DNA of 64,000 bases from an uncultured Gammaproteobacteria bacterium. GTDB taxonomy: Bacteria > Pseudomonadota > Gammaproteobacteria > JACCXJ01. How positions within the stretch are numbered: the stretch's first letter is position 1; the number at the start of each line of letters is the position of its first letter. Both the position numbers and the translations under genes were made by a program. The stretch spans positions 1 to 64,000 of the forward strand of contig CAVXTM010000004.1 in assembly GCA_963764725.1 (NCBI GenBank). Reading direction: 5' to 3'. The notes under the pieces are model-generated. The model was not told the DNA's origin, searched no databases, and saw only the letters and a list, made by a program, of their open reading frames with translations. Positions 1-11,622 of the stretch are shown piece by piece.

Positions 1-406
1 CCGGCAGATGTTTGGAATCTTTGCAGCGTTCGGCTTGAACCCTCTTCCGTAACTACGGTACCGCCCTTGACCCGTGCAAGCGCTACAACAATGGGTCTGC
101 GACCGGCGTTCCCTGAAGGACGCTTTTCTTTGAGAGGTTTTGCTGGAAGTGCGCCACAGCAAATATCTGCTGGACAAAGGCCGTCTCGGCTCGAGTGGGC
201 GTCAGGAAGATCGCCTTGTGTTGATCCACCCAATCCCTGATGAAGTCACTTCGATTGAGCCGATCCAGTTCATTCCGCACTTCCCGCGTAGAGATCAGAC
301 GCCCGTTTGCAACAAGCCGATCTACGGACTGCCACAGCGTTGGAAATCGGGTGGGGTAATAGTTGCCGAGCACTCGCAGACTGTTGTTATCCAGGACGTA
401 GATCAC
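1..406 (-). CDS. DUF4411-family PIN-like protein (runs off window; apparent frameshifts near 40 and 90)
   Basis: MIYVLDNN..NYYP..FPTLW N-terminus. Correcting two homopolymer indels gives ADPFVVALARVKGGTVVTEE...KIPNIC, the usual C-terminus. Overlaps the stop of the ImmA gene. Confidence 0.75.
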
Positions 407-1581
407 TAAGACGCTGCTCTTTTCATGAACAGCTCCTCAAGCGCGGTCAAGCTACGGACCTTCACGCCGAGGTAATCAGCAAGTTGGTCCCTTGAAATCG
501 AGCCTTGGTAATACTTGCCGAAAGCCAGTGACATGAAATGCTCGCCCAGATAACTGGCTTTGGTCAGGTAGTAATCGCCGCCACCCTCACCTTCACCGAC
601 CGATACCTCAGTCTCTTCCCTCCATTCGGATACCCGATTGCGATATTCGGACGCCGAAATACGGTGCAGGTCCCGATACTTCCGCAAAATGACCAGCCGA
701 CTGACCTTGTATCGGTTCGCTAATCGCGACAGGGTAAAGTCGTCCGGAGCTTGCGGCAGGTCCTTCACTTGAGCGGCGAAGTCAGCATTTGGAACCAGCA
801 AAGCCGCGGAAAAAGCGTTGCACCGCTGCTCAAGAAGTTTGGCACCTTGAGACAGCCCGTCCATGTAGTCGTCGCCAAATTTGGTGATTGACTCCGTATC
901 GAAAAGAAGATGGGCCAACTCATGGAACAGGCTGAAGATTTGACGCTGCTTCGCAGTCGAGTTGTTAATGACGATGACCGGAAACTCATCGTCGCGAAGA
1001 CAGAATCCGGAAACGTCCTTCTGCTTGAAGGAACGTTTGAAAACGAAAATTCCGGAGTCCTCCACCTTTGAACGCCATGCCTTTAGCGCTTCATCCGCTG
1101 TACGCCATTGCAGTTGCTGATCGAGCCCGACGGTCAAATACTCACGAACAAATGCGGCAAGCGCGGCGAAAGACCGATCGGTGAGACTAGACACATCACG
1201 CAGTAGGCGCTGCTTGCTCGGATTGACGCCAACGGTAAGTTCTTTGAGAGCGAGTTGTGTCGCCTGTGCCTCGCGCACGGCATACAGGGTGTCAGGAGAA
1301 AGATGTTCCAATTCGAAGGCAGGTAAGGTCCGGAAGAACCTTTTCGGATCGCGCTCCTCTGGTGGCTCGGGAAAGAAGAACAGCGCAAGAGGGCGTTTAT
1401 AGAGCGAATAAGCGATTCGTTCGAGCTGCGAGTACGTCGGCGCGCCAATGCCCTGCTCCCACCCTTCTATTACGGTCGCGTCTTTGCGCAGCGTAAGCGC
1501 GACATCATCGACAGAAAGACCTGCACGCTCCCGTGCCCATTGGAGCACTTTCCCCGAAAGCCCGGCGACCTGTTCAGCCAT
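406..1581 (-). CDS. XRE HTH + ImmA/IrrE-family Zn metallopeptidase
   Basis: N-terminal HTH (LQWARERAGLS...), RQIFSLFHELAH HExxH motif, EQRCNAFSAALLVP. ATG at 1581. Confidence 0.9.
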   Translation of the reverse strand: MAEQVAGLSGKVLQWARERAGLSVDDVALTLRKDATVIEGWEQGIGAPTYSQLERIAYSLYKRPLALFFFPEPPEERDPKRFFRTLPAFELEHLSPDTLYAVREAQATQLALKELTVGVNPSKQRLLRDVSSLTDRSFAALAAFVREYLTVGLDQQLQWRTADEALKAWRSKVEDSGIFVFKRSFKQKDVSGFCLRDDEFPVIVINNSTAKQRQIFSLFHELAHLLFDTESITKFGDDYMDGLSQGAKLLEQRCNAFSAALLVPNADFAAQVKDLPQAPDDFTLSRLANRYKVSRLVILRKYRDLHRISASEYRNRVSEWREETEVSVGEGEGGGDYYLTKASYLGEHFMSLAFGKYYQGSISRDQLADYLGVKVRSLTALEELFMKRAAS

Positions 1582-1907
1582 GATGCGGCCCCTTTCTCTG
1601 TGGCGACCATTTTGCACTAGGCTCCCGACCGGTGGGTGCAATCGCGCCTTCCGCCTTCATCTTCGACATACTTTGCCCTGGGCACCTTGAACAGCTCGCC
1701 GCGCACCTCGTTGAGCTCGAACGGGTCCGCTTCGCTGATGCGGCGGTCGGCTTAGCGATCCAGAAAGTCCACGAGCCATTTCTTGTTGGATTCTACCTCC
1801 GTGGTTGGGCGTAGAAGTATTCTGCGCTCCATGCGGGCCGTAGAATATAGGCCCCTATACTCCACGTCGGCGCCGCAAGTTGCAAGAACTGTATTCTCGA
1901 ACGGAAA

Positions 1908-2111
1908 TCAACCTATGCAGCGCGCGTAGGGCGAAAACGTCTCGACGTAACGCCGTTGCCTCTCGGCGTAGATGGTGTTGAACGCCAGCGACGATTTCCC
2001 CGATCCCGACACACCGGTGACCACGATCAGCTCGTTCAGCGGCAGCTCGAGGTCAAAACCCTTCAGGTTGTTCTGCCGGGCGCCTTTAATAAGGATGTGG
2101 TCGTGCGACAT
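1908..2111 (-). pseudogene. uvrA: excinuclease ABC subunit A, 5' fragment
   Basis: [10 protein letters not shown]...[34 protein letters not shown], then an abrupt end. Confidence 0.9.
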
Positions 2112-2172
2112 GAGAAGCGGCGGAAAGCTAAGAAAGCCGCGAGTATAACGGGCAACGCAGAGCGGAGCACCG

Positions 2173-2480
2173 GTGGACGATACGTCGTGCTCGCGCCCAA
2201 CCGCTGGAAGCTCGGGAAAGGGGTGCGGGTCGTGAACCAGACGCTGAACGGATTAGGGTTGGAACAACATCCCGAGAAAACGTTTATCGGTAGGATAGAA
2301 CAAGGCTTTGATTTTTTGGGCTATCACCTTCGTCCAGACAGGCTTGCCGCGGCCAAGACGGTTGAGCGTTTTCGTTGAACGTGCGAGCCCGCTTTATGAG
2401 CGCAAGCCGGGGGAGACTTTCGACTCCTCCCGGCTTGGACGGTATGTGCAACGGTGGCTCAGGTAGGCCCGAGCTGGGTT
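2173..2480 (+). pseudogene. group II-like reverse transcriptase, 3' remnant 1
   Basis: Starts at VDD (xDD motif), then [17 protein letters not shown]...HPEKTFIGRIEQGFDFLGY...RLGRYVQRW. Contains frameshifts and a stop. Confidence 0.8.
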
Positions 2481-2603
2481 TTCGGAGGGAGTGATAGAAG
2501 TGTGACCCCATTGCCGCAACTATCTCATTGTGGGCGGTGGCTGCCTTGGCACACCTCCATTATTAACCTATCAAATACCGTTGATTTCTATCCATTGCAC
2601 TTA

Positions 2604-2900
2604 CTAACAATGGCCACACGGCCAATTGTTATCGATGTTAAATGCTTTGTTGTATATTGCTCTATGCATAGCCATTTCTATGGCGTGCGCCATTGTTGGT
2701 GATATATAAATTCCCCCTCTGGTCTTATCCAGCTGGATTTCTGTTAATCTCATTTTTATGTTTGAGTCATTATTTCGGTCCTGCACCGTTTGGTAACGAT
2801 GTCTGGTAGAAGTGCTTGATTCATTCGCAGCCACCACTGGTGTTAGGCCTGTGAGGGCGACCATCAGGCTAAAGATTGCAATGTATTGTCGCTGTTTCAT
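2604..2900 (-). CDS. secreted precursor peptide 1 (Sec signal + pro-region + LTEIQLDKTRGG + 35-aa core)
   Basis: AAGGAG RBS. Signal MKQRQYIAIFSLMVALTGLTPVVAA is paralogous to 3278-3556 and 4673-4939. Confidence 0.8.
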   Translation of the reverse strand: MKQRQYIAIFSLMVALTGLTPVVAANESSTSTRHRYQTVQDRNNDSNIKMRLTEIQLDKTRGGIYISPTMAHAIEMAMHRAIYNKAFNIDNNWPCGHC

Positions 2901-3053
2901 TTCTACTCTCCTTCAATATTGAATTAACAAACATGGGTGTACCACGCTAAGTCCCGGACGTCCACAACCTTCCCCGCGGTGACTGCGTCCATTTGGTGTG
3001 CCGTGAGTTCGATTGTCTGGGGTGGGACGGGGTCGGAATGAGAATTCGCGGGC

Positions 3054-3127
3054 CCGGGGAGACACTTTCGAGTCTCCCCGGCTTGGTAGGTACGTACAAC
3101 GGTGGTTCAGGTGGGCCCGAGCTGGTT
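3054..3127 (+). repeat. RT 3'-end remnant 2 (hairpin + ~45-nt tail only)
   Basis: ccggggagac-actttcga-gtctccccgg perfect 10-bp stem, then a tail encoding RLGRYVQRWFRWARAG. Homologous to 2404-2480 and 4124-4194. Confidence 0.85.
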
Positions 3128-3277
3128 ATGGTTGCGTGCGCTTGGAGAACGGGGCCAGCCTGGTTTTCGCCTCGCTGAGCGTGAGGTCAAGCTTTGCCAA
3201 ACCGTCGCCGAGTATTGACGTGGCCAATTTCTTCAACTCGATCCCTCACAGGTTATGATGATGTGTCCAGTGACCCC

Positions 3278-3556
3278 TCATAGCCCCGCACATGCTATGT
3301 GTCTGCAGGTTACTCCGCGGCCATCGGAACCGTAGGGCGGGGGTGAGAGTTGTTTGTCCTCATTTATCATACCACCATATAATTTGTCCATTTGCTCGGG
3401 CGACAGTCTATACCCTGGGCTACTCTCGAACTGCCGCGTGTCTGGTTGGATTCGCTCACCACGTGATGTTCTTTCTGCATCCGCCACTACCACGGGCGAC
3501 AGACCAATGAGCCCCATTATCATGGTCAAGGCTGTGATATATTGTCGCTGTTTCAT
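3278..3556 (-). CDS. secreted precursor peptide 2 (Sec signal + pro-region + LSPEQMDKLYGG + 30-aa core)
   Basis: AAGGAG RBS, MKQRQYITALTMIMGLIGLSPVVVA signal. Confidence 0.8.
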   Translation of the reverse strand: MKQRQYITALTMIMGLIGLSPVVVADAERTSRGERIQPDTRQFESSPGYRLSPEQMDKLYGGMINEDKQLSPPPYGSDGRGVTCRHIACAGL

Positions 3557-3769
3557 TTCTCTCTCCTTCAATAATGAATTAACAAACATGGGTACACGAT
3601 GGTCCCTGCCGGTTCTCTCGCCTCTACTACCCAGTAAGGAATATTTGATATAGGCGCTGGGCCCCGGGTCCCATCTTGCAACGCGAATATAGAGGGGTGA
3701 AAGGATTTGATCTGTGAAATATTTCACGGAAAAAGTGTGAAATATTCACAAAATCTGTTGTGGAACACT
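3557..3769. repeat. conserved ~210-bp upstream region of precursor 2
   Basis: Closely similar to 4940-5153. The first ~40 bp are also present at 2901-2941. Confidence 0.9.
3713..3750. promoter_or_regulatory. tandem palindromic operator-like sites
   Basis: GTGAAATATTTCAC (perfect palindrome, 3714-3727) and TGTGAAATATTCACA (3736-3750). Repeated at 5098-5135. Confidence 0.6.
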
Positions 3770-3949
3770 GGGCTAATGGAAGACTTTCAATGAGAGGGTC
3801 CATTGAGCTTTTAACTAGATCCAACCTTGCCCTGACTCATTGCGCAAAATGAGGGGGTTTCCTGAGGGTGGGCATTAGCCTCCTAATCCGTGCACCTCCT
3901 GTCGCTCCGACGCCGCGCGTGCCCCTGGCGCCCGCGGGAGGAGACCTCC

Positions 3950-4194
3950 ACCAGACGCTGAACGGATTAGGGTTGGGAAAAACATCCCGAGAAAATGTTG
4001 ATCGGTACGATAGAAAAACCTTTGATTTTTTGGGCTATCACTTTCGCCCAGGCAGGCTTGCCGTGGCCAAAGACGGTTGAGCGTTTCGTTGAATGTGCGA
4101 GCCGGCCTTATGAGCGGAAGCATGGGGAGACTTTCTAGTCTCCCCCGGCTTGGTACGTACGTGCAACGGTGGTTCAGATGGTCCCGGGCGGGGC
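3950..4194 (+). pseudogene. group II-like reverse transcriptase, 3' remnant 3
   Basis: [11 protein letters not shown]...FDFLGYHFRPGRLAVAK...RLGTYVQRWFRWSRAG, hairpin ggggagact..agtctcccc. DNA aligns to 2236-2480. Confidence 0.8.
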
Positions 4195-4672
4195 TCGGCG
4201 AGGTCCGCCTCTTGTGGGTTTGGCACAAGGGGTTTCGCCGTAGCGTATGAAGGTTGTCTGGCGGCCGCCGCCGAAGTGGGTGGACCGGCTGTCTTTGGGC
4301 TTTGGTAGAATCCCAACCCCGAGATCACGTCAACCAAAAGCGAATGGTCACACACCAACATCCTTCGCCCCTCACCACCCCCCATTACAACAAGGTGCCG
4401 GCTGCGCAACACACACCTCGCGCCGGTACCCCCTATCCTCAGGTCACCCAGACCTCTTCAATCTCGTCTGTGGATACACCTCATCCCACACTCTCGAGGG
4501 GACACACCTAAACAACAATCTACACCGCGCTACAAACTCGTCTTCATTGCGGGACCTTGGGTATACGCGCGACGGCCCGACATCCCTGGTGCTTCTCTAT
4601 ATAACCCTGCCTCACCTGCGCGTCGCCCCCGAAGCTACGCCATCCAATAACACCCCGACATCCCGTCCGTCA

Positions 4673-4939
4673 CTACCGTATCCGATCATATAGTATGTGC
4701 TCGGCCGCTTGCTTGAACGCGCCGGTGAACCTGGTCAAACGGTGGAGAGTCTCTCCGGCATGGACTCTGTCCAACTGCGCTTGCCCTAGTTCGTATCGTT
4801 GCGGGCTCTCTCTATCTTGTCGGGCCTCCTGTATCCTACCACTTACTGATGTGCTCCCCGCATCCGCCGTTACAATTGGTGACAGACCCGTGAGGGTCAT
4901 TATCAGACCAAAGATTGTGATATATTGACGCTGTTTCAT
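4673..4939 (-). CDS. secreted precursor peptide 3 (Sec signal + pro-region + LGQAQLDRVHAG + 26-aa core)
   Basis: AAGGAG RBS, MKQRQYITIFGLIMTLTGLSPIVTA signal. Confidence 0.8.
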   Translation of the reverse strand: MKQRQYITIFGLIMTLTGLSPIVTADAGSTSVSGRIQEARQDRESPQRYELGQAQLDRVHAGETLHRLTRFTGAFKQAAEHILYDRIR

Positions 4940-5153
4940 TTCTCTCTCCTTCAATAATGAATTAACAAAGATGGGTGTACGATGGTCCCCTGCCGGTTGT
5001 CTCGCCTCTACCACGCAATAAGGAATATTTGATAGAGGCGCTGGGCCCCGGGTCCCATCTTGCAACGCACATATAGAGGGGTGACCGCAATTTGGTCTGT
5101 AAAATATTTCACGGAAAAAGTGTGAAATATTCACAAAATCTGGTGTGGAGCAC
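4940..5153. repeat. conserved upstream region of precursor 3, including palindromes at 5098-5135
   Basis: Direct repeat of 3557-3769. Confidence 0.9.
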
Positions 5154-5267
5154 TTTGAATGGAGGGACCATGCTATGCACGCTTGCTGAGCGCGTTACTG
5201 CGCTACCCGCGGTACTGACGCCGGGGGGCGCCCGCCTCGTCCAAGGAGATGCAGCCCGACTTCATTC

Positions 5268-5885
5268 ATGCGAACTTGGATCCCCATTGCTCTGATCCTC
5301 AGTGCCGCGGTCGGGGTGCCCTTGCTGGCCGTCGAACGGGGGCCCGTCGAATCGCTCCTGGAAATGCGGCGAGATCGAGTGGTGGTTCAGAAGTGGGACT
5401 TAAGTTGTGGCGCCGCGGCGCTTGCCACTCTACTGAATTACCAGCACGGCGACCCAGTTGCGGAGAGGGAGATCGCGCGGGCGCTGATGCAACGCCGGGA
5501 ATACCTGGCCGATCCGTTGCGGGTGCGGGTGCAGCAAGGGTTCTCTCTGCTCGACCTCAAGCGCTACGTCGATAAGCGGGGTTATGAGGGCATCGGCTAC
5601 GGCCGGCTTACGCTTCAGGACCTGATCGAACAGGCCCCCATTCTGGTGCCGCTCAGCCTGCACGGTTACAATCACTTTGTCGTGTTCCGCGGCAGGCGCG
5701 GGGATCGGGTACTGATTGCGGATCCCGCCTGGGGGAACCGTACCCTGCGGGTAGAGAGATTCGAGGAGGCCTGGATTGACTCTCCAGAGATCGGTAAGGT
5801 AGGTTTCGTGGTGGTGGGGCGTGAGGGCAGCACGCCGCCTAATCGCCTCGCCCCTCGCGCTAGTGATTTCGTGATGTTGCGGTAA
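5268..5885 (+). CDS. stand-alone C39-family peptidase with signal peptide (FapD-like)
   Basis: QKWDLSCGAAALATLL (Cys), YNHFVV (His), IADPAWGN (Asp), GFSLLDLKRY. AAGGAG upstream. Confidence 0.9.
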   Translation: MRTWIPIALILSAAVGVPLLAVERGPVESLLEMRRDRVVVQKWDLSCGAAALATLLNYQHGDPVAEREIARALMQRREYLADPLRVRVQQGFSLLDLKRYVDKRGYEGIGYGRLTLQDLIEQAPILVPLSLHGYNHFVVFRGRRGDRVLIADPAWGNRTLRVERFEEAWIDSPEIGKVGFVVVGREGSTPPNRLAPRASDFVMLR

Positions 5886-5908
5886 GCCATCAATCAGAAA
5901 GGACGCAA

Positions 5909-7186
5909 ATGACACCACCCAGGGGTTCGCGCCAGCTGATGCAAGGCGCGGCCTTAGGCGCATCTTTCGCTTTGGTGGGACTGGTTGTGGCCGGGCCCCA
6001 GACAAAGCAGGCCGGCTCTCATCCTCAGCCGACGATGGAGGAACTGATGCGAAGGCTCGAGGAGCGCGACGCCCTCATTGTTGATCTGCAGCGACGCGTT
6101 GGAGAGCTCGAGCGGCAAATCGCCACGCCGCCCGTTAACCCGCAACCGGTGGCTGCCAAGCCCGTGCCCTCAGTGCCGCCGGTAGCCTCATCGGCTGAGC
6201 AGAAGCCATCGAACGCGGAGCGTCGGAGCGACAGGATGTCGCCGGCCAGTACAGGGACGTACGCATCGACACAAGCCGAAGAGGCTCCAGCGGCTGCAAG
6301 CAGCGCGGCGCCGGCAGTGCCCGGCCAATTCGAGGTCGATGAGGAGGCCGCCGAGCGCGCGCTGGAGCAGACACTGGTCGTGACGGGCGCACTCCTTCTG
6401 CCATTTGGACAGGCCGACATCCAGCCCAGCTTCACCTATATCCGAAGCGAGGAAGAAGCACCTACCCTCTTAGCGCAAGGTGTGGCTGCATCGCAAGATG
6501 TTCGCCGCAATACCTTCATCGCCGATCTTTTTCTGCGCTTCGGTCTACCCTTCGACTCACAACTGGAGGTCGGCATTCCTTATCGATATGTAGAGCAGCA
6601 AGTGGTCACAGAAGTAGATTTCGGCGCGCGGGCCGAGACGGAGTCTCATGGCTCCGGATTCGGCGATCTCGGTTTCGGCCTGGCCAAGGGGTTGCTGGAA
6701 GAGCGCAACTGGTGGCCGGATCTAATCGGTAGGGTGACATGGGATACTGACTCCGGTGAAACCTCCGATGACGGCTTTTCGCTTGGCGGCGGCTTCCACG
6801 AGCTCCAGGGTTCGTTAACCATGACCAAGCGCCAGGACCCGCTGGTGTTCATCGGCAGCGCCTCCTACGGGACTACATTCGAAAAGGACGATTTCAATCC
6901 GGGCGACCAGCTTGGCTTCTCGGTCGGGGCGGTGCTGGCCGCCAGTCCTGAGACCTCGCTGCGCGTTGTTCTCAATCAGACATTCGTCAGCGAGCTGGAG
7001 GACGAGGATAGGACCATCAGCGGATCCGATCAGGTGTTCGGAACGCTGAACTTTGGGGCCTCCTCGATCATCGGCCGCGGGAAATTTCTCGACCTGACGG
7101 CTGGGATAGGTTTGACCGATGAGGCCCCCGATTACTCAGCAGGGATTTCTCTCACGATTAGCTTCGACGTCCCCACTCGCTTCTAG
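5909..7186 (+). CDS. outer-membrane beta-barrel transporter with N-terminal coiled coil (FapF-like)
   Basis: Signal, heptad segment MEELMRRLEERDALIVDLQRRVGELERQI, Pro/Ala linker, RALEQTLV..GALLLP, GFGD, DPLVF, IGLTDEAPD, terminal Phe. Confidence 0.8.
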   Translation: MTPPRGSRQLMQGAALGASFALVGLVVAGPQTKQAGSHPQPTMEELMRRLEERDALIVDLQRRVGELERQIATPPVNPQPVAAKPVPSVPPVASSAEQKPSNAERRSDRMSPASTGTYASTQAEEAPAAASSAAPAVPGQFEVDEEAAERALEQTLVVTGALLLPFGQADIQPSFTYIRSEEEAPTLLAQGVAASQDVRRNTFIADLFLRFGLPFDSQLEVGIPYRYVEQQVVTEVDFGARAETESHGSGFGDLGFGLAKGLLEERNWWPDLIGRVTWDTDSGETSDDGFSLGGGFHELQGSLTMTKRQDPLVFIGSASYGTTFEKDDFNPGDQLGFSVGAVLAASPETSLRVVLNQTFVSELEDEDRTISGSDQVFGTLNFGASSIIGRGKFLDLTAGIGLTDEAPDYSAGISLTISFDVPTRF

Positions 7187-7219
7187 CATTCCTATTTTGG
7201 CGGATCATCGGCAAGGTCA

Positions 7220-7412
7220 TTCGTGCATGATCAGCTAGCAGACCTGGAAGCTCCGGAATTTCAGCTTCCGGATGGCCTTGGCGGAACAGTACCACGGCAA
7301 CTATGGAAACAGGCGCGGGCTATTCGAGAATCTATCGTGGTGACCCTCCCCAGCCTGCCTGAAGAGCCTGGGCAGACGTGGCTTAATGAGACTTGGTGGT
7401 TTTTGGCCACAG
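7220..7412 (+). repeat. 193-bp copy of an internal segment of the patatin gene (34429-34621)
   Basis: Direct alignment by eye, about 3 mismatches. Confidence 0.95.
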
Positions 7413-8032
7413 CGAGCGTAGCGTGCGCTGTGCGCACGAATAACTACAGTTACCGCGTGGCCACATTTCGTCGTGCTGTCACGCCTGGGGCGACGTACTT
7501 TTTTACTGTCAATACCTATCGACGTCAGGCGCTATTGACCGATCCACCCGTGTACTCTGCGCTGAGCGAGGCACTACGGGCGGTAAAAGGTCCGCATCCG
7601 TTTACCATCGATGCCTTTGTCTTGTTGCCTGACCATCTGCACTGCCTGTGGACGTTACCCGAAGGCGATGCGGACTATGCATCGCGCTGGAACTTGGTGA
7701 AACGGAGGGTAAGCCAACAGGTCAGGCACTTGATTACGACCGATCTGACCTCATCACGCCGCAAGCGACGGGAATTGGGGTTATGGCAACGCCGCTTTCT
7801 GGGAACACCCGATACGCGACGACCTTGACTTTGCTAAACACGTCGATTACGTCCATTGGAACCCGGTTAAACATGGTTACGTTATCCGGGTGGCCGACTG
7901 GCCGTATTCGAGCTTTCATCGTTATGTGACGCGAGGTCTCTACCCTTTAACATGGGCCAGCCATGCGGAAGACGATGCGGGGCGGTATGGCGAGACGCTC
8001 TAATCGTGCGCATAGCGCACGCTACACTCGCT
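7411..8032 (+). mobile_element. REP-associated tyrosine transposase (RAYT/TnpA-REP) at 7457-8003 with flanking inverted REPs
   Basis: GATYFFTVNT, LPDHLHCLW (HUH), WQRRFWEH.IRD, YVHWNPVKHG after a +1 frameshift near 7798. 29-bp IR agcgagcGTAGcgtgcgctgtgcgcacga at 7411-7439 and 8004-8032. Confidence 0.9.
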
Positions 8033-8267
8033 AGCACGCGGTAAGCGTTTCCCTTGATGTCGCGCTGCTCGCGTGCACGGCGCTCGCACGAGCAACTACG
8101 GGGCAGATCTTGTTCCTTGCATACACCCGTAGCCACAGCACCTCGCGCATCCCTCAAATTAACCATTCAAAGGATCTGAACCTCCTCATAGCTTCCTGGA
8201 GAAGCACCATGGACCGCGCGCACCGCAGCTGCGATATCGTTCTGTATGCGGAGCCAGCTTGTCGATG

Positions 8268-8486
8268 TCACAACAACAGTGGCAATGCGTCGCGCGCAAG
8301 GTTCTGCTGATGTATGAGGTTCTTATCGGTCGTGACAAATACTTCAAACCCATCTTGTTCTGCGGCGTCAAGCAATTCGCTGTTCTTGAGCTTCGACCAG
8401 CCACGTTCGTGTGCAGTCGAGACTTCGTGCTGCGTCAACGATTCCCGCAAGGGCACCGGTACTCCCTGATCAAACAGTACGCGCAC
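8268..8486 (-). CDS. DUF5615/VapC45-like PIN toxin (probably frameshift-truncated)
   Basis: MRVLFDQGVP...GWSKLKNSELL..AE..GFEVFVTTDKNL.HQQNL. Downstream of DUF433. Confidence 0.8.
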   Translation of the reverse strand: MRVLFDQGVPVPLRESLTQHEVSTAHERGWSKLKNSELLDAAEQDGFEVFVTTDKNLIHQQNLARDALPLLL

Positions 8487-8708
8487 CTAAGCGGGAGCCA
8501 GCGCACTCCGAGCAGCATGTTCGAGGACGGCGCGAACTTGTTCGAGCGAAACGCGGGGAAACCACTGCACGAACTGGGATAGCTGCGCGCCATCCTCTAG
8601 GTTCTCAAACAGCGCAGCAACGGGCACACGTGTGCCACGAAATACCCACGCGCCACTGACGCGCTGCGGATCCCGCTCAACGGCTGTACAGGTCAACCAA
8701 TTTATCAT
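8487..8708 (-). CDS. DUF433 antitoxin-like protein
   Basis: VERDPQRVSGAWVFRGTRVPVAALFENLEDG. Confidence 0.85.
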   Translation of the reverse strand: MINWLTCTAVERDPQRVSGAWVFRGTRVPVAALFENLEDGAQLSQFVQWFPRVSLEQVRAVLEHAARSALAPA

Positions 8709-8813
8709 AAAGGTAATATTAGCACTGACACCTTTTGGCAGCTATGGAGTTATACCCTGAGCTGACTGTACATTTTCACCATCCGCAAATGCTTCGCCAT
8801 CGGACACCTGCCG

Positions 8814-9066
8814 GTAGGGCGCACCACGTGAGCGTATTGCGCCGAATGGAAGACGGTGGGGAGTCAGATGCGCCTGGATGACCTGTGCCTATGTCGCCGA
8901 ACGGAGGCAGGTGCTGCATCGAAAGTGGCGTGGGCTAAATCGCCCCAATGCCTCAGCCGTCTTGCGCCGCTCGGCCGTGCATCTGGATGCGCCATGGACG
9001 GGGAGGATGGGCGGGTTCGCGGAATACGGTGATTTGGCGCAATACGCTAACGCTATTGCGCCCTAC
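8814..9066. repeat. inverted pair of GTAG-type REP sequences (REPIN-like)
   Basis: gtagggcgcaccacgtgagcgtattgcgcc (8814-8843) vs reverse complement gtagggcgcaatagcgttagcgtattgcgcc (9036-9066). Confidence 0.75.
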
Positions 9067-9116
9067 GAAATGGTGCACGAGATGCTGGGCTAACCACGAC
9101 CTTTCATGGTGGGCGG

Positions 9117-9497
9117 TCAAGCTGCCCGGTGATCGACTGTGCGATAGGGTTGGATAAGAGCGTCGGTGGGGATCTCCAGTCCCACGGTGAGGCGGCGGAT
9201 CATGCGCAAGGTCAGCGGGCGGCGCCTTGCCATCACCTCGGAGACCCGCGCCCGGCTGCCGATGAACGGCTCTAGATCTTTCCGGGTGAGCCCGCGGCTT
9301 TCCATGCAGTGCTCGATGGCCGCGATCGGATCGGGCGGCGGGATAGGATAGTGCTCCCGCTCGAACGCTTCGACGAGGATGCAGAGGAGCTCCAAGCGGT
9401 CGCTCTCGGGCGTCTCGGGCTTGGCCTCCCACAACCGCTCGATCGCGCGCAGCGCTCGCTTGTAGTCGCCTTCGGACTTGATCGGTTTGATGTCCAT
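9117..9497 (-). CDS. higA: HigA-type HTH antitoxin
   Basis: MDIKPIKSEGDY..AL..IE.LW...DPIAAIEH.MESRGLTRKDL..IGSRARVSEV. Confidence 0.85.
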   Translation of the reverse strand: MDIKPIKSEGDYKRALRAIERLWEAKPETPESDRLELLCILVEAFEREHYPIPPPDPIAAIEHCMESRGLTRKDLEPFIGSRARVSEVMARRRPLTLRMIRRLTVGLEIPTDALIQPYRTVDHRAA

Positions 9498-9735: not shown

Positions 9736-11622
9736 CTAGTTCAGGGACGAAGGCTTCCCCGTCGAGAAGCCTTCATAAAGGACCGCAAGTTCCCGAACGA
9801 GGACTCCCATGGACCAGTCATCAGAGACAATGTGGTGCATAGCCAGCAACAGCACATGCTCCTCCTGGCCCAACCGCAATAAGACGGCGCGAAAGAGCGG
9901 CCCTTGGGCCAGGTCGAAGGGCCGTCTCGCCTCCTCGCCAGCCAGCCGTCGCGTCTCCGCTTCGCCTTCAGTCTTGGGCAGTCCACTCAGATCCACCACC
10001 GGCAGCGTCAAGGCCATCTTCAGAGCGATATCTTGAACCGCTTGTCCGTCCACGACCGAGACACTTGTCCGCAAGGCTTCGTGGCGCCGCACGATCTCGT
10101 TGAAGCTTTGTTCCAGTGCGGTCCCATTTAGTGGACCAACCAGTCGATAGGTCGCCGCAATCGTATAGGCCGGGTTGCCCGGCTCCGACTGGTGCCGGAA
10201 CCATAGCCGCTGCTGCGCAAAAGAAAGCGGCAATTGCTGACCGCGTGGACGCCGCTTGATCGGCGGAGCCCGCGTCTCCCCGTCGGCCCGAATCAAGGTC
10301 TTTTTCCGAAGCTGCAATACCAAGAGCGCTTGCTGCTGCGGAGTAAGATCAGCGACACTCTCGCGCACCTTGCCCGTGTCCGAGACTGTGGCGCGCCAAC
10401 CCCGGCCTGTCTGCCTCCCGCCCCATTGATTACCGCTCGCGCTGGATTCCGCCGCGAGGCGAAGAAGCAGATCTTCGAAGGGCACGACGCTCAAGCCGGA
10501 AACAAACTTCGAGGCGGCCTCGCGCGCGGCGGCTGACTGTCTTTCGTATAAGTCGCGATCTGCAAGCAAGCAGCTAAGCGACTCCTGCCACGGGCCGATG
10601 TCCTGCTTCGGAACGACCGGGGCCGGAAGCTGGTTTTCCTCCAGCCGGTCTGCAAAATCCTCGACCGGCTGGACGGGCAGTAAGTAATCCGTCCCCAACT
10701 TGGCCTCAATGAGCCCACCATAGTTACTCGCTAAGACAGGAATCCCGCGCAGCATGGCATCTACCACAGCCATCCCAAACCCCTCAATCCAGAGCGAGGG
10801 CATAAGGAGGACGCGGGTCTGACAGAAAATATCATCGAGATGCTGGCGATTCTTCCACAAGCTCACATTAGGGAGCGCACCGAGGGCGCGCCGCTCCGCA
10901 GCGGTCGTACCCCAGCCTGAGAGCGTCGCAAATTGCCTCTCGGGCAGCGCTCGGGCGAGCGCCAAGAAGATGGAGATCCCCTTCACGGCACAAGCATTCA
11001 TCATCAAGACAGAGCCATGATTGATGTGACCCAAATTGGGGAACGGCCCGGAACCGTAATGTGGCGGGTGGTGGACGAATGACTTGAAACCGGTCCATTC
11101 TTGGATGTAAGCGGCGACAAACTGGCTAATCGTGATAATGGCGGAGGCTCGCCCGACGAGTTCAGTCCTCCTCTTCCCGGGATATAAGCTGGCCGGCCCG
11201 AACGGGAACATCTGCGGCGTATGAGCGAGGTAGATGACTCGGGAAGGGCAGGCCTTTAACGCGGCCTCCAACAGGCTCTGCGACCGATCTTCAGATGAGA
11301 CCATGGTCCAATCTGGCCCAAACTCACGAATTTGCTTCACCAGGTAGGTACATAGCCGAGCCGGCTCGACCACTGCGTGGACCTCAACGCCATTCAAGTT
11401 AAAAACATCGATCTCGCCATCGGAGCTCACGCGAATCCCTTCGGCAGCTAACTCCTCAAGGAGCTGTGGGTGGCTTAATGAACTGGGGGTGGCGAGCGCG
11501 GGCACAACCAGACAAAGCGAGTGTTGCCTCGCAGCAAGCGCTTCGGCCAGGCTGCGATTGGATCGGTTGGCACCACCATAGACGCGGGTATATGGCAGAT
11601 TCATCGTCAACAGAATCTTCAT
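9736..11622 (-). CDS. GT4 glycosyltransferase fused to a truncated NRPS condensation domain
   Basis: GT-B motif LMPSLWIEGFGMAVVDAMLRGIPVLAS, then PLSFAQQRLWF...RHEALRT...MHHIVSDDWS. Ends mid C domain. Confidence 0.85.
   Translation of the reverse strand: MKILLTMNLPYTRVYGGANRSNRSLAEALAARQHSLCLVVPALATPSSLSHPQLLEELAAEGIRVSSDGEIDVFNLNGVEVHAVVEPARLCTYLVKQIREFGPDWTMVSSEDRSQSLLEAALKACPSRVIYLAHTPQMFPFGPASLYPGKRRTELVGRASAIITISQFVAAYIQEWTGFKSFVHHPPHYGSGPFPNLGHINHGSVLMMNACAVKGISIFLALARALPERQFATLSGWGTTAAERRALGALPNVSLWKNRQHLDDIFCQTRVLLMPSLWIEGFGMAVVDAMLRGIPVLASNYGGLIEAKLGTDYLLPVQPVEDFADRLEENQLPAPVVPKQDIGPWQESLSCLLADRDLYERQSAAAREAASKFVSGLSVVPFEDLLLRLAAESSASGNQWGGRQTGRGWRATVSDTGKVRESVADLTPQQQALLVLQLRKKTLIRADGETRAPPIKRRPRGQQLPLSFAQQRLWFRHQSEPGNPAYTIAATYRLVGPLNGTALEQSFNEIVRRHEALRTSVSVVDGQAVQDIALKMALTLPVVDLSGLPKTEGEAETRRLAGEEARRPFDLAQGPLFRAVLLRLGQEEHVLLLAMHHIVSDDWSMGVLVRELAVLYEGFSTGKPSSLN

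Follow-up and report, generated by a model that had tools for sequence, protein, structure and literature searches.

The locus analyzed here raises the question of whether a reverse transcriptase (RT) diversifies, or has diversified, a family of small secreted peptides. The window, i.e., the whole 64,000-nt stretch of contig C4 from an uncultured gammaproteobacterium, contains at 2173-5153 an island of three units, each composed of an upstream block, a Sec signal, a pro-region, a double-glycine motif and a core, and in each unit the peptide gene faces, tail-to-tail, the 5'-truncated 3' end of an RT gene (Table 1). An initial annotation had proposed that an RT generates the DNA between leader and tail and so makes a peptide library. 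The elements that it described in this region are all found in place by ORF, repeat and BLAST analyses, and the likeness between units is, as it had noted, high on both sides and lost in the middle: leaders and upstream regions are 76-86% identical (93-94% for upstream sub-blocks) and RT tails (2173-2500, 3054-3125 and 3950-4193) 84-86%, whereas the repeat finder and BLAST gave no alignment among units between leader and tail. The block upstream of peptide gene 2, which presumably holds a promoter and 5' UTR, contains two TGTGA...TCAC palindromes, read from the sequence, and its sub-blocks D4 and D6 are 93-94% identical to 4988-5154. A scan for intrinsic terminators between peptide stops and tails gave 5 terminator-like sites against 3.0 expected, none of them convincing.

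Table 1. Features of the three-cassette island and the adjoining secretion genes (window coordinates)
Feature	Position	Strand	Basis or remark
uvrA-like gene, 5' fragment (67 codons)	1908..2111	-	ORF list; marks the left edge of the island
Tail T1, 3' third of UG4-class RT gene (~residues 218-318)	2173..2480	+	One stop and one frameshift in translations; database matches at ≤83% identity
Tail T1, model R1 match	2386-2491		93 bits
Peptide gene 1 (98 aa)	2604..2900	-	Sec signal, pro-region, ...LDKTRGG, core with C-terminal WPCGHC
Upstream block of peptide gene 1, shortened	2901..2957	-	Repeat family D5; remainder deleted relative to the C14 copy, which has the whole block
Filler segment	2952..3050	undefined	89% identity to pro-region coding part of the fourth C14 peptide gene; read as a recombination or deletion scar
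Tail T2, shortest remnant, begins at stem-loop	3054..3127	+	Repeat finder, BLAST
Tail T2, model R1 match	3044-3139		50.6 bits
Peptide gene 2 (92 aa; ATG at 3556)	3278..3556	-	Core C-terminus ...YGSDGRGVTCRHIACAGL
Upstream block of peptide gene 2	3557..3769	-	Repeat families D2, D4, D5, D6
Spacer, upstream block to next tail	3770..3949	undefined	Also repeated between cassettes; 94% identity to C14 11009-11187, 78% to C14 12081-12177
Tail T3 (~residues 235-318)	3950..4194	+	Several stops and frameshifts
Tail T3, model R1 match	4100-4206		80.8 bits
Peptide gene 3 (88 aa)	4673..4939	-	Motif ...LDRVHAG; core in this locus only
Upstream block of peptide gene 3	4940..5154	-	Repeat finder, BLAST
Periplasmic C39 cysteine peptidase (205 aa), FapD/FilB-like, signal peptide	5268..5885	+	PF03412
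FapF/FilC-like outer-membrane beta-barrel	5909..7186	+	PF13557

A signal peptide (MKQRQYI...), a pro-region and the motif L..Q(L/M)D...(G/A)G are common to the three window peptides; the cores cannot be aligned. In alignments of 6 and of 28 family members the L, D and G columns are invariant, with leaders ending in GG or GA; a canonical double-glycine leader has an L..(E/Q)(L/M)D motif before GG or GA. The peptide family matched 73 database clusters, and no match with a meaningful score was found to any Pfam or NCBIfam family. The GG or GA leader, the small unrelated cores, often with cysteines, and the presence of several paralogues per locus resemble double-glycine bacteriocins, microcins and RiPPs, and conserved leaders with hypervariable cores are a feature of multi-precursor RiPP families such as the prochlorosins. 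Unlike in double-glycine bacteriocins, the leader here follows a Sec signal, and the peptidase is a stand-alone periplasmic protein rather than the N-terminal domain of an ABC exporter.

In translation the RT tails comprise the thumb region and RT motifs 6 and 7, interrupted by a stop and a frameshift. They begin downstream of the catalytic YMDD motif and are 66-83% identical to database RT proteins, of which 118 matched the tail. Four of four full-length tail relatives match the RT_UG4 profile end to end (E 4.6e-115 to 1.2e-123; positions 3-306 of 307) and so belong with the UG4 RTs (UG/Abi class 2; Simon and Zimmerly 2008, Mestre et al. 2022), whereas the window holds dead 3' fragments only, spanning profile positions 210-305. 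These relatives are ~355 aa long and consist of the RT domain alone, with no endonuclease domain. The "group II-like RT" of the initial annotation is therefore indeed an RT 3' end, but the group II label was imprecise; the match to the group II RT/maturase model reached 26 bits, where the cut-off is 300. When 1500-5600 was scanned against Rfam with E values up to 10, no intron family appeared and the only match was a chance one to alpha_tmRNA (E 0.65), in line with the earlier remark that no domain V follows the RT, and a group II intron is ruled out by the absent intron RNA together with the UG4 class of the RT.

Several traits recall DGRs, i.e., an RT beside the 3' end of secreted or surface-protein genes, a variable segment held between conserved anchors, and a hairpin rich in GC near the target 3' end. 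However, the RT falls outside the DGR clade (its best family is UG4), the differences involve entire segments, in length as well as in sequence, instead of adenine positions, RT and target are convergent, and the cores of this locus are stable. No repeat of the variable segments was found in the locus or elsewhere in the genome, which agrees with the TR/VR pair having been reported missing, and a classical DGR is ruled out as there is no such pair in the locus, the genome or the intact relative L127/L128.

Nor does the genome appear to supply an enzyme that could act on the cassettes from elsewhere, as had been suggested: a profile search of the genome (96.9% complete) found no intact UG4 RT, and its best other RT adjoins Cas1. 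Searched with a covariance model of the tail element, the 4.2-Mb genome yielded exactly six copies; three lie in the window, the other three on contig C14, and every one belongs to a cassette locus. Each of the six is opposed to a peptide gene, and 6 of the 7 peptide genes are accompanied by a tail, a pairing beyond chance. Differences between tails are spread over codon positions as 13/13/13, 13/7/12 and 10/6/12; because they are spread evenly, the tails drift as non-coding DNA, and the idea that they were separately functional RT genes until recently is unsupported. T2 is a shortened version of a longer C14 tail (11121-11431), and some of the unlike 5' truncation points are secondary deletions.

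The second copy of the island, on contig C14, has four peptide genes and three tails. Its flanks are 97.75% and 98.6% identical to those of the C4 copy and its cassette content is unlike, with the order 1-B-2-D on C14 and 1-2-3 on C4; one C14 tail is a hybrid that joins two tail types, and the tails share the spacer-to-tail junction. The uvrA-like gene is full-length at the same place on C14, and genus relatives (G003 and G004, public; G005 and G008, unpublished) keep the uvrA flank to ~2147-2176, followed by unrelated DNA. The tail element was absent from 8 of 8 same-genus genomes searched, while an unpublished genome of another genus (G009) has tails, broken peptide genes and a C39/pore match of 81%, with no intact UG4 RT. 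Environmental contigs share the leader and then diverge, at three breakpoints, into sequence unlike the window. Comparison of these sequences supports the view that the middle segments act as exchangeable cassettes on an evolutionary scale, with boundaries in tail and leader. The original proposal is thus supported in part, as cassette exchange, which the two array orders, the hybrid tail and the breakpoints all reflect, and not as the making of a library by an RT.

The cores themselves are stable, distinct peptide types and form no running library. Between the C4 and C14 copies, core segments differ by 2 (cassette 1) and 3 (cassette 2) scattered differences per ~270 nt, and the cassette 2 orthologue in G009 is 79% identical. 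The core type of peptide gene 2 is widespread in metagenomes and recurs in at least 10 metagenome clusters among the 28 aligned family members. Contigs of 151 nt from three soil or sediment runs match cassette 2 with 0-2 differences; these runs share only 5-9% of words, and their assembled contigs cover little outside cassette 2. The claim of hypervariable cores is contradicted by this low, ordinary divergence, and no sign of a peptide library in the making was seen in this genome; the conservation of one core type in many metagenome clusters is a kind of result that the initial annotation had itself named as refuting. As to their origin, capture from elsewhere in the genome was rejected for V1, V2, V3 and VD, which have no other copy there, and for VB, which contains no more than a short dispersed repeat. 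In this genome the locus is a gene family that is stable and has decayed in part; it is not actively diversifying.

The explanation that we favor, with moderate confidence, is that the island represents a horizontally acquired fossil cassette array with its C39 and pore genes, present twice and reshuffled by recombination, with no RT acting now. It would encode a small secreted peptide family together with its own export machinery: the precursor would cross the inner membrane by Sec, the periplasmic C39 peptidase would trim it after the double-glycine motif, and the trimmed peptide would exit through the FapF-like outer-membrane pore. The conserved blocks of a unit would be (a) the leader with its upstream region and (b) what is left of the 3' end of a dead UG4-class RT gene; in intact relatives this gene appears to lie directly after the pore gene, facing a secreted-protein gene. 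The array would have grown and been reshuffled through duplication, deletion and homologous recombination between repeated blocks; we infer that shuffling occurred by recombination and, because this would run between the repeated blocks, whole core segments would move as cassettes while the blocks stay alike. A comparable process is known from the orphan module arrays of Rhs and CdiA, where variable modules, each after a 5'-truncated piece of the conserved gene, are built up by recombination in the conserved part. The analogy is one of process only, as the conserved piece here is an opposite-strand RT gene instead of being the variable gene's own 5' part. One observation runs against a fossil array: plain duplication predicts that the non-coding 3' parts should be ~85% alike, as the tails are, yet they are unalignable, and repeated recombination or block-limited gene conversion therefore has to be assumed.

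The secretion route and the cleavage site are predicted from family resemblance, which for the Fap and Fil families lies below curated cut-offs. The C39 peptidase matches PF03412 above cut-off (E 5.8e-14) and has a signal-like N-terminus, read from the translation; its matches to FilB (E 3.5e-30, 105 bits) and FapD (E 2.9e-26, 92 bits) are below the cut-offs of 475 and 330, respectively. The beta-barrel matches PF13557 (E 9.3e-6, 26.3 bits; cut-off 22) and, weakly, FapF (E 1e-6, 27.9 bits; cut-off 700) and FilC (E 7e-5, 22.3 bits; cut-off 630). The order of a signal-peptide C39 peptidase followed by a candidate FapF-like barrel resembles the Fap and Fil systems; scores are far below family cut-offs, however, and the Pfam and NCBIfam searches revealed no amyloid or pilin subunit (FapB/C/E, FilA) among the peptides. 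The C39 protein stands alone, and the locus encodes no ABC transporter with an N-terminal C39 domain. FapD has been described as a periplasmic C39 peptidase required for export through FapF, and Fap proteins as having no canonical double-glycine leader, in the consulted part of PMC5557850. In contrast to Fap, the presumed substrates here are precursors of 88-98 aa with a canonical double-glycine leader after the Sec signal. The C39 peptidase presumably cleaves these precursors at the GG motif, and the FapF/FilC-like barrel is presumed to be the export pore. The peptides suggest an undescribed export route, in which Sec transport would be followed by periplasmic cleavage of a canonical double-glycine leader, and such a route would give FapD-like peptidases a clear candidate substrate, which is still missing from the Fap literature.

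The UG4 RT family is linked to C39 and pore genes beyond this island. In metagenome loci L125, L137 and L179 the order is C39, pore and then an intact RT or a tail (the C39 gene of L179 lies off the contig). L137 and L179, which both carry tails, have a convergent secreted protein with a GG-like leader, and the L125 contig ends 14 nt past the RT; L179 retains a minimal tail directly after the pore gene. Profile HMMs run over all 144 UG4 loci found C39, pore and leader in these three metagenome loci only, and tblastn found them near none (0/80) of the reference-genome UG4 loci. UG4 belongs to a small set of bacterial RT classes lacking both a defence signature and an assigned function, in its case since 2008. 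According to the sections consulted of PMC2602772 and PMC9226505, UG4 genes occur several times per genome with 3' flanks that are unrelated, are not enriched in defence islands and have "fimbrial" surface-protein neighbours. Neither these sections nor full-text literature searches for UG4 gave any mention of orphan tails, a covarying 3' stem-loop, a convergent arrangement or a link to C39, pore or GG-leader genes; the supplementary "fimbrial" cluster tables of PMC9226505 may bear on the novelty of the C39/pore association.

Orphan UG4 tails are common in metagenomes and often face secreted-protein genes. Among 64 metagenome loci, 35 have clearly internal tails and 4 have full-length genes; the longest downstream open frame is convergent in 71 of 107 loci, and many stop codons lie 34-110 nt from the tail end. 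This wide recurrence is a further observation that speaks against the fossil array, as chance hitch-hiking in a single array is insufficient to account for it. Another reading is that a mobile UG4 element left the tails behind as dead retro-copies truncated at the 5' side, with the peptide genes lying at its preferred insertion sites. In a manner similar to stringent-type LINEs, the RT would recognize its own RNA by the 3' stem-loop and begin copying at that end, and aborted copies would have a common 3' end and unequal lengths; non-LTR retrotransposons, which copy from the 3' end, likewise leave 5'-truncated copies with a common 3' end. Tails do end alike near residue 318, with starts ranging from residue 167 to 288, and RT reading frames extend beyond the conserved end into unrelated sequence. 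Moreover, one 9.5-Mb genome has at least three intact UG4 genes and at least six tails on different contigs, and the 2008 work, in the part consulted, reported signs of retromobility for UG4 alone among non-intron bacterial RTs, based on two copies with identical 5' flanks and unrelated 3' flanks (PMC2602772). Mobility of this kind is nevertheless improbable as the source of the tails. The RT of ~355 aa has no endonuclease domain, non-systematic inspection revealed no target-site duplications or terminal repeats, and the bias towards convergent secreted-protein genes would be left unexplained. In addition, the shared spacer-to-tail junction and the recombinant structure of the tails in the window argue for duplication inside the array and thus against separate insertions.

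The locus gave three testable features of UG4, namely a stem-loop in the 3' coding end, many orphan tails, and a tail-to-tail bias with secreted-protein genes, in which one lineage has the UG4 element inside a C39 peptidase/pore operon. The stem-loop, which may bear on what UG4 enzymes do, is the sole dip in the folding z-score among 36 non-redundant full-length genes and shows covariation: 85.7% of cells are paired compared to 69.9% in shuffles, double changes occur in 13 of 14 pairs, and none of 500 shuffles scored as high. Its retention in the orphan tails of the window, as a covarying structure, counts against the fossil array in that it hints at a function and less at an inert remnant. 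The tail could be a working cis-element, with a core of ~70-100 nt (the conserved GGCTTTATGAGCAAG stretch and the stem-loop) recognized by a UG4 RT. A tail-to-tail copy would make the 3' part of a gene a substrate on which the RT carries out rewriting or cDNA synthesis, by analogy with the IMH sequence and hairpin of DGR targets, and the array in the window would consist of former targets left after loss of the RT. DGR targets need a hairpin downstream of VR, according to the consulted part of PMC3240598, which offers a parallel. The position-specific, covarying stem-loop, the frequency of tails relative to full-length genes, the convergent frames with nearby stop codons and the minimal tail of L179 all fit this reading, to which we give a limited but real chance. 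It is countered by the stable cores and by the two genomes with these peptide cassettes (the present genome, G000, and the unpublished G009), both of which have no intact UG4 RT. An invariant stem counted in 32 metagenome orphan tails was not used as evidence, since the count is biased by a retrieval peptide pattern that spans the 5' arm and by a filter that required the stem.

One pair of intact relatives, L127 and L128, shows a local patch of change. These loci are identical over most of the target gene and differ by 1 mismatch in the RT, but near the target 3' end 18 mismatches are packed into 90 nt and 4 into 15 nt; of the 15 codons affected, 13 carry non-synonymous changes, and in five the changes fall at positions 1 and 2. 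Such a clustered, mostly non-synonymous patch is DGR-like and favors a cis-element, although it may be the result of gene conversion, and no template repeat was found in this pair. RT-driven rewriting may occur in intact systems. The broader proposal that UG4 RTs drive target-linked rewriting without a template repeat, with the stem-loop as recognition site, orphan tails making the 3' parts of secreted-protein genes substrates, and the window array as a fossil multi-target locus with a new Sec/C39/FapF-like route, is rather unlikely to hold. No further patch was confirmed in other near-identical contig sets, and L133/L134/L166/L177, L156/157, L141-143 and L149/150 have no clustered patch near the tail. 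L131/L132 have 22 differences in 50 nt, with indels, at the target 3' end, where the contig stops before likeness could resume, and L136/139, L151/152, L181/183, L183/184 and L187/188 show ordinary mosaic divergence.

The interval 2173-5153 holds three units, in each of which a small gene stands tail to tail with a 5'-truncated 3' end of a reverse transcriptase (RT) gene, and the genes, leader blocks, RT tails and unalignable middles described in the initial annotation were all confirmed. All three peptide products have a Sec-type signal at the N-terminus (MKQRQYI..LTGLSPVVAADA), a pro-region that is semi-conserved and the motif L..(E/Q)(L/M)D...(G/A)G, while alignment showed the sequences C-terminal to this GG-type motif to be unrelated among the three. 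Units 2 and 3 are 86% identical in a conserved upstream block of approximately 215 nt (93-94% in sub-blocks), of which unit 1 retains 57 nt. The tails are 84-86% identical to one another and, upon translation, were found to encode RT motifs 6 and 7 and the thumb region, broken by stops and frameshifts; no alignable sequence was found from tail to leader motif among the three units. Two TGTGA-N5/6-TCAC palindromes in the conserved upstream blocks (3705-3769 and 5090-5154) resemble CRP/FNR-family binding sites; such putative sites would imply that the peptide genes are commonly regulated.

Peptide genes and RT-gene fragments in the cassette array
Feature	Position	Strand	Remark
Peptide gene 1	2604-2900	-	One of three small genes in 2173-5153
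Peptide gene 2	3278-3556	-	One of three small genes in 2173-5153
Peptide gene 3	4673-4939	-	One of three small genes in 2173-5153
RT-gene fragment T1	2173-2480	+	Tail to tail with peptide gene 1, downstream side
RT-gene fragment T2	3054-3127	+	Tail to tail with peptide gene 2, downstream side
RT-gene fragment T3	3950-4194	+	Tail to tail with peptide gene 3, downstream side

A search with the tail fragment identified 118 proteins at E 1e-3 or better among 262 candidates, with identity up to 83%; many of these are RTs of about 355 aa, and the PADLOC RT_UG4 profile was matched over its whole length by all four full-length relatives compared (E 1e-115 to 1e-123). The tails had been described as group II-like, of which the RT remnant stands and the group II assignment does not. 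As for a group II intron RT, the maturase model scored well below cut-off and Rfam found no intron RNA; the initial annotation had seen no domain V after the RT. According to one study (PMC2602772), UG4 alone among bacterial RTs outside group II introns shows hints of retromobility, two UG4 copies in one genome being identical in their 5' flanks but unrelated in their 3' flanks; another (PMC9226505) reports no enrichment of UG4 in defence islands and one subgroup adjoining predicted fimbrial proteins. An intact UG4 gene was not found in this 96.9%-complete genome by tblastn with the tail, by searches with a full-length relative or with the RT_UG4 profile. The strongest other RT match in the genome, a 333-aa RT with a Cas1-like gene immediately behind it at the start of contig C1 (653-2724), is CRISPR-associated and unrelated to the tails. 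A covariance model found six copies of the tail element genome-wide, all inside two cassette loci. Pairwise differences between tails are evenly spread over the codon positions (13/13/13, 13/7/12 and 10/6/12), indicating that the tails diverged as non-coding DNA.

It had been proposed that an RT generates a peptide library here, which found no support in this genome, where an intact UG4 RT is missing and the cores are stable between island copies, genera and metagenomes. Between the window and a second island copy in the same assembly, core segments 1 and 2 (approximately 270 nt each) differ at only 2 and 3 sites, respectively. An unpublished genome from another genus of the family carries an orthologue of cassette 2, core included, at 79% identity, about equal to the 81% of its neighbouring C39 peptidase and pore genes; its cassette reading frames are broken. 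Three soil or sediment runs contained short contigs that match cassette 2 at 99-100% identity. A peptide profile recovered 73 metagenome clusters, all unnamed, which share the signal and pro-region and carry diverse cores; of 28 family members aligned, at least 10 have the peptide 2 core type (...YGSDGRGVTCRHIACAGL). Judged from these comparisons, the peptide cores are distinct, conserved types, which, on the proposal's own terms, refutes ongoing library generation.

The gene at 5268-5885 encodes a signal-bearing C39 peptidase (PF03412, E 5.8e-14), the nearest families being FilB and FapD, both below cut-off, and the gene at 5909-7186 encodes a PF13557-family barrel with weak likeness to FapF and FilC. 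FapD is described (PMC5557850) as a periplasmic C39 peptidase needed for export via FapF, its substrate being unknown. In the window precursors a Sec signal precedes a canonical GG leader; taken together, this suggests, as the most economical reading, that the precursor would be exported by Sec, cleaved after the GG in the periplasm by the C39 peptidase and released via the pore. Among metagenome loci, one (L125) has the order C39, pore, intact RT; a second (L137) has C39, pore and tail, and a third (L179) has the pore end and a minimal tail; in the latter two, a secreted protein with a GG-like leader follows in convergent orientation. At least one lineage thus has the RT within its C39/pore gene set; C39/pore-type neighbours were found at none of 80 UG4 loci in reference genomes. 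Directly after the pore gene lies a homologue of Y1 (IS200-like, REP-associated type) transposases (7223-7828); of a 32-nt inverted-repeat pair, one arm lies within this gene (7411-7442) and the other downstream (8001-8032). A genome of the same genus, G003, carries the transposase segment at 95% identity beside its own uvrA island. A 27-55-nt sequence of the spacer before T3 (3894-3920) recurs inverted in the linker-coding part of the pore gene (6213-6239), and occurs on contig C14 (11134-11163) and, at 83-96% identity, on several contigs of related genomes; it is therefore a small dispersed repeat.

The second island copy, on contig C14, has flanks 97.75% identical over 1022 nt and 98.6% identical over 2033 nt, and comprises four peptide genes and three tails. 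Its left flank is a full-length uvrA-like gene with a frame broken in the assembly, of which the window retains only the first 67 codons (1908-2111). Same-genus genomes (G003 and G004, public; G005 and G008, unpublished) match this flank to approximately 2147-2176 and continue into unrelated DNA, such as a restriction-modification pair, and the tail element was found in none of eight same-genus genomes; the locus is therefore an acquired island, and the first tail starts exactly at its edge. The C14 uvrA-like gene (3669-9240) is large, of double length, and lies in four overlapping frames; in G005 and G008 it forms a single open frame exceeding 1850 aa, and its split on C14 reflects either frameshift errors or a pseudogene. 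Directly left of the uvrA fragment in the window (83-1641, minus strand), a DUF4411 protein adjoins an HTH and IrrE/ImmA-type metallopeptidase (PF14367, PF06114), which looks like a toxin-antitoxin or regulatory pair.

Cassette order is 1-2-3 in the window and 1-B-2-D on C14. The C14 tail before core 2 is a hybrid, whose 5' part and preceding spacer resemble T3 (87-94%) and whose 3' part is nearly identical to T2; T2 is a shortened form of this hybrid and is connected to the upstream block of gene 1 via a 99-nt filler, itself a copy of pro-region sequence from a different cassette. Contigs from a metagenome run that is possibly RNA match the leader and then diverge from the window at three breakpoints, and another contig passes from a tail into different downstream sequence. 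These observations indicate that cassettes were gained, lost and recombined via the two repeated blocks, which would yield conserved flanks around unalignable middles if, as we infer, the array is old or exchange between genomes occurred. The window holds a stable, partly decayed array of double-glycine peptide cassettes with a presumed periplasmic peptidase and pore, each cassette ending in a UG4 RT remnant; this is probably, though far from certainly, a fossil array. Another tandem array built on the same principle was found at a metagenome locus (L158, 806-3784), where an RT tail followed by a convergent secreted DUF1554-like gene occurs twice, approximately 1.65 kb apart; its tails are 78-93% identical and its DUF1554-like genes divergent.

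Metagenomes yielded 64 UG4 loci, gathered with a close full-length relative: 4 full-length, 35 tails preceded by 300 nt or more of non-RT sequence (or with the entire missing length covered), 14 with 60-299 nt upstream, 8 ambiguous at contig starts and 3 other partials; the full-length to tail ratio is no frequency, because retrieval favoured C-terminal patterns. One large genome has at least three intact UG4 genes and at least six dispersed tails, and two others have tails alone. That such tails are dead retro-copies is an improbable reading. By a crude measure, the longest open frame immediately downstream runs convergently in 71 of 107 non-redundant loci. Many of the convergent frames encode signal-bearing proteins and stop 34-110 nt from the tail end; among ten scanned, one had a CHRD domain, two had weak DUF1554 matches and seven were without a family. 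All metagenome tails end near residue 318, and RT conservation stops at the ...RW.RAG codons, where the frame continues into unrelated sequence. The association pointed out in the initial annotation, of RT tails with convergent peptide genes, is real and general enough to offer first concrete handles on the UG4 class.

Moreover, a stem-loop was located between the LYEQ and LG.YV codons of UG4 genes. The folding z-score of 36 non-redundant full-length genes dips solely at this position (means -2.1 and -1.8 in the two covering windows) and never falls below -0.93 elsewhere. In a 40-sequence alignment, 85.7% of cells were paired versus 69.9% in shuffles, 13 of 14 pairs were changed on both sides, and the covariation score was 0.395 versus 0.153 in shuffles (none of 500 reached it; slid controls, at most 0.18); stem sequences are wholly different between lineages. 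The stem-loop persists in the window tails, where T1 has a mismatch and T3 a weakened base. Its retention could indicate that the tail is a working cis-element of an RT-dependent process, which we consider rather unlikely given stable cores in a genome where no intact UG4 gene was found; the fossil array is the reading we prefer.

Two metagenome contigs, L127 and L128, share both their RT and a convergent gene for a 267-aa secreted, DUF1554-like protein. Over approximately 2.27 kb, one site differs in the RT and most of the target is free of differences; patches near the target 3' end hold 18 differences in 90 nt (L127 1338-1428) and 4 in 15 nt (1571-1585). Of the 15 codons affected, 13 have non-synonymous changes and five are altered at positions 1 and 2. 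A template repeat was not found on these contigs, and no comparable patch was found in four near-identical groups (L133/L134/L166/L177, L141-143, L149/150 and L156/157). In L131/L132, differences with indels occur at the target 3' end, where the contig ends too early to judge. The patch could be explained by gene conversion and is a lead, not a result. The L127 RT and convergent gene are flanked by 160-nt inverted repeats (3-162 and 2385-2544; 93% complementary), which suggests an invertible or mobile unit.
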